Source of the DNA: an uncultured Thermococci archaeon
Lineage (GTDB): Archaea; Methanobacteriota_B; Thermococci; Methanofastidiosales; B48-G16
DNA length: 64,000 bases
Reading direction: 5' to 3'
Assembly (NCBI GenBank): GCA_964595645.1
Contig: CAZQQT010000003.1
Span: 157,636 to 221,635 of the forward strand
Shown here: one piece after another, positions 2,228-27,209 of the stretch
Position numbering within the stretch: the stretch's first letter is position 1
Layout: every line of letters begins with the position of its first letter
Notes under the pieces: generated by a model
What the model was told of the DNA's origin: nothing
Seen by the model: only the letters and a program-made list of their open reading frames with translations
Databases searched by the model: none
Program-made: the position numbers and the translations under genes

Positions 2228-3099
2228 CCGCTCATCTCCTCGATTATCGAGAGGTTCGCATAAGCGAGACTATCCAGATCGTAGCCTCCTTCCAGTACTG
2301 CACCAAGAGGATACTCATTGATCTTCTCAATGAATGTTCCATACACTTCTGTTGAGAGGTTCAGTCCTGATAAGGGATCCTTTCTATGAGCATCTTGGCC
2401 TGCGGAGATTAATATGCAGTCAGGATCGTATTCCTCTATCTCCCGCACCACAATGTTATCAAAGATCCGAAGATACTCGCTGTCTCCTGTTCCGTCGGGT
2501 ACGGGGATGTTCAGTGTAAATCCCTCTCCTTTTCCTTTTCCTCTCTCAACTTCATAGCCTGTCAGAGGGTAAATACTTTTTTGATGAATTGAAAGGTAAT
2601 AGACCCAATCAATGTCGTAAAAGGCTTCCTGCGTTCCGTCCCCATGATGACAATCCCAGTCCAGAATGAATACTCTCTCCATTCCATGTTTCTTGAGGTG
2701 CCAGGCTGTAATCGCAACATTGTTGAGATAACAGAACCCCCCTCCATGTGTTCTACACGTGTGATGCCCAGGAGGCCTGTTCAGTGCGAATGCGTTCTCC
2801 CCATGTAACAGTGCATCGCCTACACTCAACGCGCAGAAGGCGGATAGAACAGCGATCTCATAGGTGTTGTCCTGTACCACTGTATCAGCAGTCATGTAGC
2901 CTCTTGAGCATCTCAACCGATGTAGATACCCTTCATCGTGTACCTTCTGGAATATCTGCTCATCAAATCGTTTTGGTACTTCTGTAGGTACTCCATGCTC
3001 ATCCAGGACTTCTTTCGATCGTTCGACCCTCTCCTTCCGTTCTGCATGGGAGCCCTCAGGTATGTGATTGCGCATCCCCTCATCGTAAAAAACCCTCAT
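2224..3099 (-). CDS. Histone deacetylase / AcuC-family deacetylase
   Basis: RPPGHH, GFCYLNN, DWDCHHGDGTQ, SAGQDAH..DPL, LEGGY. ATG at 3099; stop overlaps the priL start (ATGA). Confidence 0.93.
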   Translation of the reverse strand: MRVFYDEGMRNHIPEGSHAERKERVERSKEVLDEHGVPTEVPKRFDEQIFQKVHDEGYLHRLRCSRGYMTADTVVQDNTYEIAVLSAFCALSVGDALLHGENAFALNRPPGHHTCRTHGGGFCYLNNVAITAWHLKKHGMERVFILDWDCHHGDGTQEAFYDIDWVYYLSIHQKSIYPLTGYEVERGKGKGEGFTLNIPVPDGTGDSEYLRIFDNIVVREIEEYDPDCILISAGQDAHRKDPLSGLNLSTEVYGTFIEKINEYPLGAVLEGGYDLDSLAYANLSIIEEMSG

Positions 3100-3171
3100 A
3101 CTATCAATATTCCTTTTTCTGTTAAAATAAGTGTTGGAAACTATTTCTAGCAATCTTCTCTAATAAAATTG

Positions 3172-3693
3172 CTATACATACCCCCCAAACTCTTGATGCA
3201 TTTTCAAAAAGCGTTTTATAGACTTTTCATTATCTATCCTGTCTTTAAAATGCTCCAAAGCTTGTTCAAAGGAGACAATTTTGCTGTCCATTACTAAATT
3301 ATCTACATAAGCAATAAGTTTTTCTTCTTTAGTTTGGGGAAGATAGTTCCCCCTTGGGAGTCCAAGTTTTTCAGCCTCTTTTTTGTCGATTCCAGCGCCT
3401 AAATGATTTTTGCATACACGAATGTATATTGGATCTACATTGTACCTTTCCAAAATTTTCGCCCCTTCAATACCGTGGAATACAGAGTTTGTTTCACATC
3501 GGCCGATATCATGGAGTAATGCCCCAATTTTGACGGCATGTTCATCTATATTGCCAGCATTTTCATTCATACGTCGGGCTATTCGTACCGCGTGAACACT
3601 GACGGTCTGTACATGCCTAATCACATCCTCAGAACAGCCTTCTCTCTCCAGTAGTTCCAGTGCGTCCTTCTTTCGCATCTTATTTTTCCCCAT
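3172..3693 (-). CDS. HD-domain protein (TIGR00295-like)
   Basis: H..V, LLHDIGR, HG..GA, HLGAG, P.T.EEK..AYVD. Usual archaeal position after tfe. Confidence 0.88.
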   Translation of the reverse strand: MGKNKMRKKDALELLEREGCSEDVIRHVQTVSVHAVRIARRMNENAGNIDEHAVKIGALLHDIGRCETNSVFHGIEGAKILERYNVDPIYIRVCKNHLGAGIDKKEAEKLGLPRGNYLPQTKEEKLIAYVDNLVMDSKIVSFEQALEHFKDRIDNEKSIKRFLKMHQEFGGYV

Positions 3694-21257: not shown

Positions 21258-22463
21258 TTATAAAAGATAGTATAAAATTACCGGGAAGAGAATGACACCC
21301 ATACAATGTGACTTTTTCACGCCGAAGAGATGGGGAAGCACGCCGATGCAAAGGGCAGTGACGAGAACGATCAGTCCTGCGAGTCCGGTAAGTGCCACAA
21401 CAGCCACGGTAAGAAACGCGACAATGACAACGGAAAGTTGTGTATAAGGTAATTTCTGAACAAGATAGACCATTCCCCTTCCCATCTGCAACGTAAGTAC
21501 CACGGCAATGCCTGAGCTAAATAGTACGACGGCGAGAAAGAGGAGGAGTTCGTTTTTACCGAGATCTATAATGTGTTGAATCGCGATCACAGCACCGGAT
21601 CGTGGTTTCTGTATGGTGTAGAGCGCAAGAAGAGAAAAAAGCGCGTTGCTTGTATTCACACCGGAACAGGCAATAATGAATCCTCTGCTCCCATAGAGTT
21701 TCTTTTTTACCTTGCCCATTTGTACCAGTACCGTGGCCTGTGCATTGCCGAGTCCTGGAAAAAATGCCACAAACATCCCTGCTAACGATCCTTTGCATAT
21801 ATTTTTGAGTATCTCCTTTTTGGGAATGAGAAGACGGAAGTCTATTGGCTGAATAGGGATACTGCTGTCATTTTTCACGCTGAACAAGAGGAGACTAAGA
21901 CCGAAAAGTCCCGTAAACACAGGAAATAACTTTTGATCTTCAGGAAGAAAATGGCCATTGAGCACGAGATATCCAAGTATCCCTGAAAGAAGATATACCA
22001 ACAGTGCGTAGAGTCTTTTAATTCCATCTTCCGTGAAAATGAGTACGCCGCTAATGCCAACCAAAAAATATCCCATATATGGGGATATTGTCTTGTAAAG
22101 AACTGGCATGAGTAGATACACAGGATAGAGTATCAAGAAAGCAACGAGCATCGAGCCCATGCTCCCCAACGCTGTGAGTTTTATCGCTTCTAGTCCTCGT
22201 CCCTCAAGAAGCATTCTATGGGCAGGCAACACACTGAGGGCTGTCGTCTCGTCAGGTACCCCCAGAAGAGTAGAGGGAATGAAATTAAGGAAAGTGTGAG
22301 TCATCATTAAGGCAACGATCATCACGCAAGTCACAAGAGAAGGATTAAGAAGATAAAAAAAGGGAATAAGTGTGTTCACATGAATTCCCGGAATTAATCC
22401 AGTAATCGTTCCTAACCCTATGCCCATAAGGGCATAGAGAATATACTCTCCACCACCTACCAT
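21258..22463 (-). CDS. TctA-family (archaeal DUF112) membrane protein
   Basis: GLIPGIHVN, FIPS.LLGVPD..TALSVLP.H....GRG, PRSG. Confidence 0.88.
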   Translation of the reverse strand: MVGGGEYILYALMGIGLGTITGLIPGIHVNTLIPFFYLLNPSLVTCVMIVALMMTHTFLNFIPSTLLGVPDETTALSVLPAHRMLLEGRGLEAIKLTALGSMGSMLVAFLILYPVYLLMPVLYKTISPYMGYFLVGISGVLIFTEDGIKRLYALLVYLLSGILGYLVLNGHFLPEDQKLFPVFTGLFGLSLLLFSVKNDSSIPIQPIDFRLLIPKKEILKNICKGSLAGMFVAFFPGLGNAQATVLVQMGKVKKKLYGSRGFIIACSGVNTSNALFSLLALYTIQKPRSGAVIAIQHIIDLGKNELLLFLAVVLFSSGIAVVLTLQMGRGMVYLVQKLPYTQLSVVIVAFLTVAVVALTGLAGLIVLVTALCIGVLPHLFGVKKSHCMGVILFPVILYYLL

Positions 22464-23975: not shown

Positions 23976-24623
23976 CTAATGCAACATCCGGTATATCATT
24001 TTTGCCCTTTTTTCTCCGATACCCTCCACTTCTTGCAACTCCTTTTTCGAGGCAGTGGCAATAGAAGCGATAGACTCGAAGTGGGCAAAAAGATTTTTCG
24101 CTAAGGTATTCCCGATATATGGCAATGACGCCAGAATGTATATTTTTTTATCTTTTTCAGGGAGATCGCCCCGTAACCGTTTTCGATACCACCGTTCCTG
24201 CGGTATCTTTTCATTGGACTCTTTCCGTTCTCGTTGGACAAGCACCCTAAAAAACTCTTTAAATTCACTGTCATTTTTCACGGTCACAATAGGAATTTCA
24301 TAGACAAACAGGATCTCCATAAACGCACCAAAAATCTGTGCCCGTTCGATGAATGGATCGAACTCTCCATGGATCACGAGCATTCGTCGAGTTATTTTGT
24401 ACAGACCGACTGTATCATTTTTTATCATTTTCAAAAGCTGTTCCCATAATCGGTTGCTTCGTATTGAGGAAACAAAATCTGAAGGAGATTTTCTCTCTAT
24501 CAGTACCCCCTTATTCCCCTTGAGAACGAGTATATCACCCACAGAGAGCTGGGCCATCTCCGGATCGTACTCCAGTAGAAGATCCACAATACATGACTCT
24601 CTGTTGTCGAGTACAATATCCAT
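23976..24623 (-). CDS. ERCC4/XPF-type nuclease with HhH2 domain, no helicase part
   Basis: D.RE, L.VGD, IERKS..DF..SI...RL..Q, LPYIG...A, VEGIG..RA. Confidence 0.9.
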   Translation of the reverse strand: MDIVLDNRESCIVDLLLEYDPEMAQLSVGDILVLKGNKGVLIERKSPSDFVSSIRSNRLWEQLLKMIKNDTVGLYKITRRMLVIHGEFDPFIERAQIFGAFMEILFVYEIPIVTVKNDSEFKEFFRVLVQRERKESNEKIPQERWYRKRLRGDLPEKDKKIYILASLPYIGNTLAKNLFAHFESIASIATASKKELQEVEGIGEKRAKMIYRMLH

Positions 24624-24672
24624 GGAGAATATATCTCCAGTATATTTTTAAATTCTTGGGAGCATACAGACC

Positions 24673-25092
24673 ATGGACAAAATTACCGTGAAAAGGCTGA
24701 AATCCGACGAGGAACGTAAAAAAATATACGATGATATTGCATTTCTCATCTATAATGAAAAAAATGAAGAAAAAATAAAGGAACTTTCCAATTATTTCTA
24801 TGAAAAGTCTGCTATATACTCTGACAAGGAGTATTCATACTATTCCTTTGGTTTTTACATTTTATTAAACAGTTTTTTTGTTGAGAAAGAGGAATATAGT
24901 CCATTAAAGGCTTTAAAGTACGCAAAAGAGAACAAAGAGGAGAAAATGATAGACTCTCTTTCCCAATTTGCGCGGTACGCTGTACGGGTGCGGAATGTCC
25001 AACACTACTCCATTGAACCAGAAAGCTCCCTCGAGACATTGTGGTTGTACAGTCTCACGGTAATAAAACATGTGGTAGAGTCGTACAAGTGA
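24673..25092 (+). CDS. Hypothetical protein
   Basis: 139-aa ORF 4 nt upstream of the next gene; no motif recognised. Confidence 0.65.
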   Translation: MDKITVKRLKSDEERKKIYDDIAFLIYNEKNEEKIKELSNYFYEKSAIYSDKEYSYYSFGFYILLNSFFVEKEEYSPLKALKYAKENKEEKMIDSLSQFARYAVRVRNVQHYSIEPESSLETLWLYSLTVIKHVVESYK

Positions 25093-25096
25093 TACC

Positions 25097-26161
25097 ATGG
25101 TCTGTGAGTACCGGTATGGGCCAGAGGCAATGGAATACCTCAAAAAGATGCCAGATATTTCCTATTCTGAATGGCGAAATTTTGTGAGAGAAAAATTCAG
25201 AAAAAAGAATGGAGAAGAACTGGCACATGCTGGGAAAGTGGCATACTATGCGTGGAGAAATCTTGGTAGGGATCTAACACTTTCGCTCGAAGAAAAAAAT
25301 GATGTATCTTTTGAATTCGAAGCGCCTCAGTTTGAGGATCTTGAACAAATCGATGAAACATCCGCGGAAGAGGCGAAAAAGATAGGGGAAGAGGTCTATG
25401 GTAAGGCACCCAAGGAGGTCATGCAGTTTAACACGTCAAGAAAACCCTTTTTAATGGTATTTGAGGAAGATTATCACGCCCCTCGAATGGTAATAGTAAA
25501 AAAAAGTGGATTGTTTTCCCGAGAGGAAATGCTAGCATCGAAGATTTATCGCTATCTCGGTGCAAGGGTGTTTGATATTACCAAGGAGAATGGGAGACTT
25601 TTTATTGAATGGCTGGACGGGGTGGACTGTCATGCAATGGAACGCATATCAACAGAGAAAGTAGCCTTTAATTTCGTGTACTACCTTGGAAAAGCTGCTG
25701 CAGACGCCCACTGCATTGGTCTGGGAGATAGATTCCACAATGAACGTGCGAATCTCTCAATTTTGAAGAGTGAAATCGTGGAAGAGTTCAGGGATGACGT
25801 GTTTAACCCCATATACAACATAGATTATGAGTTTGCCTTTCTGAGAGAGCGGTTGAGGAGAACACCGGAGGAAGATCTCATTACTGTCTGGATGACATTC
25901 AAAAAAATAGGGCTTGAAAACATTGCTGATGAGATAACCGAGTCCCAACTGGAGCATCTCATTGCAAAGTATATAGAAGGGTTCCACAAACGATATCGGG
26001 AAATACAGGAAAGTTATCAGATAAACAAGGGGAAAGTAGATGAACTTCTCAGGACATATGATGAAGAGGTACTCCATCTCTGTAAAACACGGTTTGAAAC
26101 AAACGTGGACGAACTTGTTGAAAGATTAGAGGAGATACTCGCCTCCACATTTTTTGATTAG
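25097..26161 (+). CDS. Hypothetical protein with PI3K/PI4K/PIKK-like (atypical kinase) motifs
   Basis: Collinear motifs TSRKPFLM, VIVK, E.LA, FIEW, IGLGDRFHN, NIDYEFAF. Confidence 0.6.
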   Translation: MVCEYRYGPEAMEYLKKMPDISYSEWRNFVREKFRKKNGEELAHAGKVAYYAWRNLGRDLTLSLEEKNDVSFEFEAPQFEDLEQIDETSAEEAKKIGEEVYGKAPKEVMQFNTSRKPFLMVFEEDYHAPRMVIVKKSGLFSREEMLASKIYRYLGARVFDITKENGRLFIEWLDGVDCHAMERISTEKVAFNFVYYLGKAAADAHCIGLGDRFHNERANLSILKSEIVEEFRDDVFNPIYNIDYEFAFLRERLRRTPEEDLITVWMTFKKIGLENIADEITESQLEHLIAKYIEGFHKRYREIQESYQINKGKVDELLRTYDEEVLHLCKTRFETNVDELVERLEEILASTFFD

Positions 26162-26195
26162 AAAGATATATAAGATTCAATTATACGATGTATAT

Positions 26196-27209
26196 ATGAA
26201 TCTCTCGGATAAAGACAAGGCGATAGTTGCATTAATAGCTATGGTACTAATCACCCTTCTTGTAAGTTACTCTGCAAGCTTCCATATTTTGAGGCTCAAA
26301 ACAGAAAAAAGCAACTATATAATAATTACGCGTAATATCGATAGTAGTGGAGAGTTGAAAGAGCTCTTAACAGAAAAAGATAGTACAATTAGTAATTTAG
26401 AGCACGAGGTAGAAAAACTGAACAGTGAAAAAAACAACTTAATGTCAAAGGTTGAAGAAAAAAATGAGACGATTGAAGAAAAAGAACAAGAAATTGACGA
26501 AATGAAAAAAAATGTTGAAGAACTTCATAAGGAAAATGAGCTCTATACCGCATCAGCGAAAAGGTTGTCGAATGTACTGCGGAGATACAACTATAAACTA
26601 AAAGAGACTATTGAGGAATATCAAAAAGATCCGAGAAAGTTTATAAAAGAATCTAAGGAACTCGAAACCATGGTTGAAGATATAGAAAAAGAGAATTTTT
26701 TGGAAGATCTATATGAATATATCGTAACCAATTTCTATTACTACTACGATCCTTTTACCGTCACATCCGAAGGTGTGCAGGAGTGGAACTTCTTTTTAGC
26801 GTATGATCTAAAGGAGAAAATATGGATAAAAGTGCCCCTTGACAGGGAAGAACTTCTCCTGAGCTCTCTTCCCGAAACAATATTCTATCCCAAAGAAACA
26901 ATAGAGTTGGGAGGTGGAGATTGTGAGGATCTCACAATTCTCTATGCTGCTGCGTGTATTTCTCAGGGATATGATGCAAAAATCTATGTCATTGATATCA
27001 CCTCGAAGAACTCACTACTTCAGCCCATTTCTCACACCCTTGTTATTGTCGATAACACACTTGTAGACATTACCATGGATCAATATATCACAGGAAAAAA
27101 TCTATTTCAACAGTATGGAAATTCCATCAATGCAGAAAAAATCACGCTCGCAAAAATATACGATAATAAAACTATAGAAGACAAAAATACAGTCGTTTAT
27201 TCTACGTAA
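26196..27209 (+). CDS. Membrane-anchored coiled-coil protein with transglutaminase-like domain
   Basis: N-terminal TM, heptad coiled coil, then PKET....GDCED, H.L and D triad. Confidence 0.8.
   Translation: MNLSDKDKAIVALIAMVLITLLVSYSASFHILRLKTEKSNYIIITRNIDSSGELKELLTEKDSTISNLEHEVEKLNSEKNNLMSKVEEKNETIEEKEQEIDEMKKNVEELHKENELYTASAKRLSNVLRRYNYKLKETIEEYQKDPRKFIKESKELETMVEDIEKENFLEDLYEYIVTNFYYYYDPFTVTSEGVQEWNFFLAYDLKEKIWIKVPLDREELLLSSLPETIFYPKETIELGGGDCEDLTILYAAACISQGYDAKIYVIDITSKNSLLQPISHTLVIVDNTLVDITMDQYITGKNLFQQYGNSINAEKITLAKIYDNKTIEDKNTVVYST

Follow-up and report, generated by a model that had tools for sequence, protein, structure and literature searches.

The PI3K, PI4K and PIKK kinases are treated as essentially eukaryotic, their prokaryotic look-alikes being HipA toxins, which have a PI3/4-kinase-like fold, and a few bacterial effector kinases; the kinases known from archaea are mostly of the ePK, RIO and Bud32 types. 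PI3K has been counted among the eukaryote-specific families (PMC1821047). Here we describe a gene at positions 25097–26161 of the forward strand of a 64,000-nucleotide stretch of DNA from an uncultured Thermococci archaeon (hereafter the window, to which all coordinates refer). It encodes a 354-residue protein, P0001. Structure prediction and the conservation of its residues suggest that P0001 is a soluble, catalytically competent atypical kinase with a PI3K/PI4K-type fold and the founding member of a small archaeal family as yet without a name, a reading to which we assign a probability of roughly 0.75.

The P0001 reading frame was taken from the listing of open reading frames and its translation and is supported by homologues and by a structural model; its start codon is backed by the N-terminus MVCEYRYGP, common to the full-length homologues. 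Residues 1–82 are modelled poorly, and the kinase domain comprises residues 83–354. Within this domain, all features lying on the forward strand, the glycine-free P-loop-like beta hairpin MQFNTSRKPFLMVF (residues 109–122, 25421–25462) is built in the model from strands 107–111 and 118–122 and follows a widely kept family consensus, Q-F/Y-N-T-x-E-K-P-Y-L. The candidate ATP-phosphate-binding lysine, K135 (25499–25501), ends a predicted strand at residues 130–136. The hinge-like segment LFIEWLDG (residues 168–175, 25598–25621) has an aromatic residue at position 172 and an invariant glycine, G175, and the catalytic loop AHCIGLGDRFHNERAN (residues 204–219, 25706–25753) contains the invariant D211, R212 and N215 and aligns with NDRHLGN of a repeat that passes the Pfam PI3/4-kinase model PF00454. 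The invariant D243 of YNIDYEFAF (residues 240–248, 25814–25840) corresponds to the metal-liganding Asp of the DFG motif, and between it and the catalytic loop lies a family-specific insertion (residues 216–238, 25742–25810) that ends in the near-invariant P238. The preliminary description, made from the sequence alone, had quoted five kinase motifs, and all five are found in the order it gave: MQFNTSRKPFLMVF, VIVK (K135) with E144-M-L146, LFIEWL (168–173), AHCIGLGDRFHNERAN and YNIDYEFAF. Its remark that the spacing of the catalytic loop is non-canonical is likewise borne out, as N215 follows D211 at +4, compared with +5 in the canonical DRHxxN loop of the PF00454-passing repeat, which belongs to the giant protein P0024. 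A further 27 residues separate N215 from D243, about 13 of which are absent from that repeat. The net charge of the insertion is −2 to −3 in the close clade, and the insertion is basic (+2 to +7) in nine of ten longer (370–451-residue) distant relatives; the segment following D243 shows neither conservation nor a basic character in the family as a whole.

To place these motifs, P0001 was compared with large protein collections. A word-indexed search of 5.8 billion proteins returned seven full-length homologues with 63–68% identity, all unnamed or hypothetical, from metagenome-assembled genomes (MAGs) labelled Methanomicrobia or Euryarchaeota. An exhaustive phmmer search of 1.8 billion representatives added about 15 distant relatives (E 1e-12 to 8e-4), which carry no Pfam domain and come from DPANN-type archaea or are among a few giant proteins. 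In the joint 20-sequence alignment (A2), where the distant relatives are 17–22% identical to P0001, the positions G175, G198, D211, R212, N215 and D243 never vary, and conservation is 90% or higher at K135, L209, P238 and G295. The K135 column holds Lys in 18 of the 19 sequences that cover it, and the exception carries a Lys one position later. The D-to-N spacing of +4 (DRxxN) is kept throughout, except in P0014 and P0025 (+5). D243 stands in the context I-D-Y/F-E/D, without the Phe-Gly pair of DFG, and lies about 13 residues farther from the catalytic loop than its counterpart in P0024. Hence the Lys and the two Asp residues, on whose conservation the kinase proposal had been staked beforehand, are retained down to 17–22% identity, together with the Arg and the Asn. 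Because the catalytic positions are invariant or near-invariant in an alignment of this depth, the motifs are more than a chance resemblance, and the invariant D211, R212, N215 and D243 with the near-invariant K135 are the signature of retained catalysis.

Family models did not detect this relationship. Scans of P0001 against Pfam and NCBIfam gave chance matches only, as did all A2 members scanned singly at E up to 10, and for P0001 Pfam returned no Pkinase, RIO1, Kdo, APH, choline-kinase, EcKL, FAT or FATC match. PF00454 (gathering threshold 27.1 bits) matches neither P0001 nor the other 19 members of A2, even at E up to 10, and a PF00454 match is absent across the entire host genome. Among PDB sequences, neither phmmer with P0001 nor hmmsearch with the A2 profile found a kinase match.

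The predicted structure carries the assignment further. A first AlphaFold2 (AF2) model, built on a shallow nine-sequence alignment, was too poor to use (predicted local distance difference test, pLDDT, 64, and below 50 in the catalytic region). The model built on A2 has a predicted template-modelling score (pTM) of 0.77 and a mean pLDDT of 74.5, with values above 80 over most of residues 80–354 and above 88 in the final 100. Its N-lobe consists of three strands, the third ended by K135, followed by helix 141–154 and two more strands that lead into the hinge; in the C-lobe, a long helix (187–206) runs into the catalytic loop, and a short strand precedes D243 and the helical remainder. The best 50 Foldseek matches in the PDB are all PI3Ks (Vps34 and p110 alpha, gamma and delta), with E of about 5e-5 and a probability of 1.00. 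A second structure search, independent of Foldseek and covering 48,161 representative chains, gave among its best 50 matches Vps34 (Z 12.7), PI4KIII-beta (12.2, 18% identity), Tel1 (11.6), actin-fragmin kinase and PI4KIII-alpha (both 11.4), SMG1 (11.3), ATM (10.8) and the p110 isoforms (10.6–10.8), along with Bud32 (10.6, as expected within the superfamily), PI4KII-alpha and CylM (both 9.9) and APH-type kinases (8–9.6). HipA chains are not among the 50 matches listed in this search or in the closer comparison below, all of which have Z of at least 7.9. Closer comparison raised human Vps34 to Z 13.8, with a root-mean-square deviation of 3.4–3.6 Å over 233–243 residues: residues 83–353 of the model align with Vps34 566–872, which is the entire kinase domain including its C-terminal helices. 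In the same comparison p110-gamma scored 12.8 and PI4KIII-beta 12.3, and over the two comparisons the Vps34 and PI4KIII-beta matches span 233–248 residues. The atypical-kinase fold on which the proposal had also been staked is thus what the model predicts, its best matches being Vps34, p110, PI4KIII-beta, mTOR, SMG1 and Tel1.

A shape search of the ESM Atlas gave a template-modelling (TM) score of 0.51 to a eukaryotic PF00454 cluster and 0.40–0.45 to APH clusters. The nearest named clusters by ESM features, which we treat as leads only, are actin-fragmin kinase (0.85), HipA_2 (0.85) and PI3_PI4_kinase. The closest Atlas structures of all (TM 0.55) are unannotated Bacteroidota clusters of 315–340 residues, one of them auto-named 'RNA ligase', and these may be a bacterial counterpart of the family.

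A bridge to PF00454 at the level of sequence is provided by giant proteins with tandem kinase copies. Phmmer with P0001 reached P0024 at E 2e-4 in the 1.8 billion proteins, and the A2 profile matches 13–15 tandem stretches, about 300 residues apart, in P0024 (4792 residues) and P0026 (5071 residues), each stretch covering the catalytic-loop half of the domain and several copies being degenerate. Residues 2280–2500 of P0024 pass PF00454 by themselves (29.3 bits against the cut-off of 27.1), the whole protein scores 70 bits, and four further repeats give sub-threshold matches to the same part of the model. Direct alignment of A2 with P0024 2200–2500 by hhalign (probability 89.6%, E 1.9e-6) pairs GLGDRF-HN with INDRHLGN and NIDYE with NIDLD, from which the loop of the family can be read as the canonical DRHxxN minus one residue, with about 13 residues added before the DFG-like Asp. 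The homology to PF00454 is carried by one stretch of one bridge protein and covers the C-lobe only. Predicted structure, profile comparison and language-model features (the last as a lead) agree on the class of fold. Quite apart from the bridge, these giant proteins are peculiar. The gene for P0024 is on a Logan contig of 56.8 kb, where its neighbours include genes for a glycosyltransferase, a NosD/beta-helix protein and a TMEM260-like protein. Another large protein, P0018 (3528 residues; 571–787 and 2958–3219), joins Ribonuc_L-PSP and FkbO/Hyg5-like domains to one C-terminal kinase domain of the family (93 bits with the A2 profile).

Compared with the described systems, P0001 most resembles Vps34 and the other PF00454 kinases, which give the best structural match (Z 13.8, over the whole kinase domain). 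It shares with them the glycine-free P-loop hairpin, the beta-3 Lys, the metal-binding Asp in an I-D motif, a G-x-G/S-D-R...N catalytic loop after a small-residue helix (LGxAxADA), and the sequence bridge through the P0024 repeat. However, P0001 fails the PF00454 hidden Markov model (HMM), its DRxxN loop is one residue short and has no conserved His, the DFG-like Asp comes after some 13 additional residues, and Tyr-Glu/Asp stands in place of the Phe-Gly of DFG. It also has neither C2 nor solenoid helical domains, is only 354 residues long, comes from an archaeal host and shows no conserved lipid-binding activation loop. The PIKKs mTOR, ATM/Tel1 and SMG1 share the kinase-domain fold (Z 11.3–12.3) and a hinge with an aromatic residue after the Glu, but P0001 is an order of magnitude smaller, ends at the C-lobe helices, has no HEAT repeats and no FAT or FATC match at E up to 1, and departs from their catalytic loop in the same way as from that of PI3K. 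The 'PI3K/PIKK-like' label of the preliminary description holds for the PI3K/PI4K-like fold and motifs, with the caveat that P0001, having no FAT or FATC region, is not a PIKK.

Other relatives by fold are more remote or of another kind. Actin-fragmin kinase, a slime-mould enzyme with motifs of its own (PF09192; PDB 1cja, 327 residues), is a stand-alone kinase of similar size that matches at Z 11.4–11.9 over 231 residues and is the nearest ESM cluster (0.85), but there is no HMM match and its Z is tied with or slightly below those of PI3K/PI4K. HipA and the Legionella protein MavQ share a prokaryotic PI3/4-kinase-like fold (MavQ Z 8.6; HipA_2 near in ESM features); they give no HMM match, the structural score of MavQ is lower, and P0001 is encoded in a chromosomal gene trio rather than in a toxin-antitoxin pair or as a secreted effector. 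The dehydratase domain of LanM/CylM (DUF4135) resembles the model in fold (CylM Z 9.9), and repeats of the giant proteins give weak DUF4135 matches beside PF00454; P0001 itself has no DUF4135 match, and neither a lanthipeptide cyclase domain nor a precursor gene lies nearby. Unlike the ePK, RIO and Bud32 kinases, P0001 has no GxGxxG motif and no HRD/HGD...N loop with +5 spacing, its hairpin 109–122 being devoid of Gly and its loop being DRxxN. We consider membership in the protein-kinase-like superfamily secure. The best assignment is to an archaeal family, as yet unnamed, that belongs to the superfamily's PI3K-like branch and is distantly related to the PI3K/PI4K catalytic domain; the evidence for the PI3K/PI4K/PIKK subclass is not overwhelming.

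The family is narrowly distributed. The host genome (1.97 Mb in 14 contigs, 99.96% complete), in which mcrA was not found, belongs to a GTDB family of two genera, and all six species genomes of this family carry the kinase gene, while a search of 127 further genomes from the phylum did not find it. A longer, distant branch (about 430 residues) occurs in Woesearchaeota and Nanoarchaeia MAGs of 1.1–1.3 Mb and in one MAG labelled Methanosarcinales; among 301 sampled genomes of that DPANN class it is carried by two and by none of the other 299. On these counts the family is archaeal, rare and patchy, a distribution that speaks against any direct part for it in how the eukaryotic enzymes arose. The preliminary description had spoken of an undescribed archaeal branch, which is a fair term, since there is no Pfam or NCBIfam assignment and no source names the family; a literature search likewise found no description of it. 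Among the sequencing runs that contain this DNA no RNA run is listed; the DNA runs are metagenomes of microbial mats and may represent the sample of origin. P0001 would thus represent a stand-alone, minimal PI3K-type fold (about 270 residues) with its catalytic set intact, which occurs in DPANN as well as free-living archaea and escapes the family models now available. As such it would offer a compact model for the core of PI3K-type kinases and add a predicted signalling enzyme to the archaeal repertoire.

From the model and the conserved positions we infer a use of ATP and a set of residue roles. ATP would sit between the glycine-free hairpin (109–122) and the hinge (171–175), with K135 holding the alpha and beta phosphates. 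D211, in the shortened DRxxN loop, may act as the catalytic base, and N215 and D243, the DFG-equivalent Asp, would ligate Mg2+. The substrate site is predicted to be shaped by the insertion 216–238 and the helical C-lobe (260–354). For the substrate, we tentatively favour a protein or peptide hydroxyl, which we consider the likeliest single option at somewhat below even odds; a small molecule comes next, well behind, an inositol or other lipid is about as likely or slightly less so, and an inactive scaffold is less likely than any of these. The order of the structural Z-scores was considered as a guide to a lipid or a protein substrate and set aside, because the differences amount to only 1–2 Z units.

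In the window, the kinase gene stands second in a trio of forward-strand genes. Directly upstream, an open reading frame for a conserved protein of 139 residues (24673–25092) ends 4 nucleotides before the kinase start, and the two genes are probably co-transcribed. This arrangement is found in the window and in all eight related loci, the upstream protein having a mean column identity of 83% in its alignment (A4). A TATA-like box read from the sequence, TATATTTTTAAA (24641–24652, forward strand), is a putative promoter situated in a 49-nucleotide divergent spacer, about 20–30 nucleotides upstream of the first gene of the trio. The 139-residue protein has no Pfam or NCBIfam match. Its ESM-feature leads are to RiboL-PSP-HEPN and HEPN_RnaseLS clusters (0.84–0.87, low recognition), and a HEPN partner for the kinase would bring to mind Ire1 and RNase L, which we note as a lead only; the protein family has no conserved Rx4-6H motif, and H111, the sole candidate HEPN His, is not conserved. 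The possibility that this gene is a split-off N-terminal domain was rejected, since hhalign against the N-terminal extension of the DPANN-type proteins gave a probability of 0.2%. A predicted complex of the kinase with the 139-residue protein scored 0.00, which speaks neither for nor against binding.

The third gene, about 35 nucleotides 3′ of the kinase gene (26196–27209, forward strand), encodes a 337-residue transglutaminase-like protein in which a transmembrane helix at the N-terminus is combined with a coiled coil and a cysteine-protease core, as judged from Pfam and a homologue alignment (A5). The longest reading frame opens with TTG at 26154 and overlaps the kinase gene, but A5 places the real start at ATG 26196 (M15). 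The protein's Pfam matches are DUF553, with a score at the cut-off (20.5 bits), and, sub-threshold, Transglut_core; the Cys-His-Asp of the transglutaminase-like core is invariant in A5 (C257, H294 and D305, in the numbering of the frame 26154–27209). A TATA-like sequence read from the DNA, GATATATAAG, lies about 25 nucleotides upstream of this gene. PADLOC found nothing for the kinase, the 139-residue protein or the DPANN relatives, and its matches to the downstream protein are coiled-coil noise. The order of the kinase and transglutaminase-like genes is kept in the window and six related loci, and the trio as a whole is conserved in two genera and six species genomes. Going by conserved gene order, the one basis for the suggestion, the three proteins are probably partners in function.

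Around the kinase genes of the distant relatives the neighbours differ, and the small upstream partner gene is missing. In seven of the seven distant DPANN-type loci (L005, L012–L016 and L018), a gene of the Metallophos/Metallophos_2 type, encoding a weakly YfcE-like protein of 228–257 residues, lies directly downstream in convergent orientation, an arrangement that would fit a kinase/phosphoesterase pair. In L013, a gene for a Rad50/SMC-like ATPase of 847 residues adjoins the metallophosphoesterase gene. The host genome has 12 Metallophos matches, all away from the kinase locus.

Several observations weigh against the proposal that P0001 is an active kinase of the PI3K/PI4K type working with its neighbours. 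No kinase-family sequence model matches P0001 itself; one residue is missing from its catalytic loop, the family does not keep the His of DRH, and the distant relatives do not keep the acidic residue of helix C (E143/E144). In the AF2 model, the catalytic and activation region, with the insertion 216–238, has a pLDDT of only 64–72. Furthermore, the gradient of Z from PI3K-like structures (10.6–13.8) to generic kinases (8–10) is shallow, so that the subclass is less secure than the superfamily. As to the neighbours, the linkage comes from synteny among close relatives only, and the metallophosphoesterase gene is convergent and not co-transcribed, and is not adjacent to the kinase gene in the host genome.

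Two alternative readings keep an active enzyme and change its substrate. P0001 could be an inositol-lipid kinase acting on archaetidylinositol or a related lipid, tethered by its membrane neighbour and opposed by the metallophosphoesterase of the DPANN relatives; we regard this as unlikely. The best structural matches are indeed lipid kinases (Vps34 Z 13.8, p110-gamma 12.8, PI4KIII-beta 12.3), although the protein kinases of the same fold, mTOR, SMG1, Tel1 and actin-fragmin kinase, lie within 1–2 Z units of them. Also in its favour are a short basic run (KAKLRK/RERLRR) just after D243 in the close clade, a basic insert beside the active site in most of the longer distant relatives, and a membrane-anchored protein encoded next door; family-wide, however, the segment that follows D243 lacks both conservation and a basic character. 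The substrate is possible in the host, since its genome encodes inositol-1-phosphate synthase and two CDP-alcohol phosphatidyltransferases, one of them in a 457-residue frame. In the kinase-bearing DPANN genomes, however, whose completeness is not established, inositol-1-phosphate synthase was not found in four of four and a CDP-alcohol transferase was not found in two of four. The inositol lipids mentioned in the preliminary description thus gain no specific support. Moreover, nearly all the sampled relatives expected to share the lipid metabolism lack the family, and that it was found in neither the 127 genomes of the phylum nor the 299 of the DPANN class indicates that the kinase is not a general part of archaeal inositol-lipid metabolism. 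In its fullest form, as the first archaeal inositol-lipid kinase, opposed by the metallophosphoesterase in DPANN archaea and recruited to the membrane here by the transglutaminase-like partner, this reading is a long shot. If true, it would describe a prokaryotic phosphoinositide-type switch related to the Vps34 fold, with archaetidylinositol or host-derived inositol lipids as substrate, and would close a gap pointed out in a 2026 preprint, according to which neither kinases nor phosphatases of archaetidylinositol have so far been identified (bioRxiv 10.64898/2026.04.15.718656). The other such reading, in which P0001 is functionally an APH/choline-kinase-type enzyme for small molecules and models closest to PI3K by happenstance, also seems improbable to us. 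Many prokaryotic members of the kinase superfamily act on small molecules (PMC4702295, PMC1821047), APH, macrolide, homoserine and MTR kinases match the model at Z 8–9.6, APH clusters appear in the Atlas shape search (TM 0.40–0.45), and the YfcE-like phosphodiesterase encoded beside the DPANN relatives could act on a small phosphoester. Yet the PI3K/PI4K/PIKK matches are consistently higher (Z 10.6–13.8, with PI3Ks filling the best 50 of Foldseek), the sole Pfam-level sequence bridge is to PF00454, with no APH, choline-kinase or EcKL HMM match, and no metabolic genes are conserved beside the kinase.

Tandem, partly degenerate copies are often met in scaffolding pseudo-enzymes, and the 13–15 copies of the giant relatives, several of them degenerate, together with the short catalytic loop, the non-conserved His of DRH and the variable acidic residue of helix C, could point to a pseudokinase devoid of catalytic activity, with a scaffolding role for the proteins encoded beside it. 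Against this stand D211, R212, N215 and D243, invariant at 17–22% identity, and the near-invariant K135, which make loss of catalysis very unlikely. We give the least credence to the idea that P0001 is a toxin kinase of the HipA kind from a toxin-antitoxin or defence module, in which the small upstream gene would supply the antitoxin or sensor. ESM features do list HipA_2 with the nearest named clusters (0.85, a lead only), and a small gene with weak HEPN-type ESM leads (0.84–0.87) does end 4 nucleotides upstream; but P0001 has no HipA_C (PF07804), HipA_2 (PF20613) or Couple_hipA match at E up to 1 and no PADLOC match, the distant relatives are without the small upstream partner, whose H111 varies, and every species genome of the GTDB family (six of six) has the locus in syntenic form, unlike sporadic mobile modules. 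An active atypical kinase of the PI3K/PI4K type is the reading that best accommodates the invariant catalytic set and the predicted fold.

Beyond the trio, a gene for a short nuclease with ERCC4 and helix-hairpin-helix domains, resembling the C-terminal part of Hef and XPF, lies at 23976–24623 on the reverse strand, divergent from the trio. This adjacency is kept in L001–L003, L007, L009 and L010 and not in L004 and L011. Directly upstream of the distant kinase P0014 is a gene for a TctA-family permease (L018, 3754–4965), and the window holds a likely counterpart on the reverse strand at 21258–22463, 2.6 kb from the kinase gene, which we name by analogy with the annotation of L004 only.

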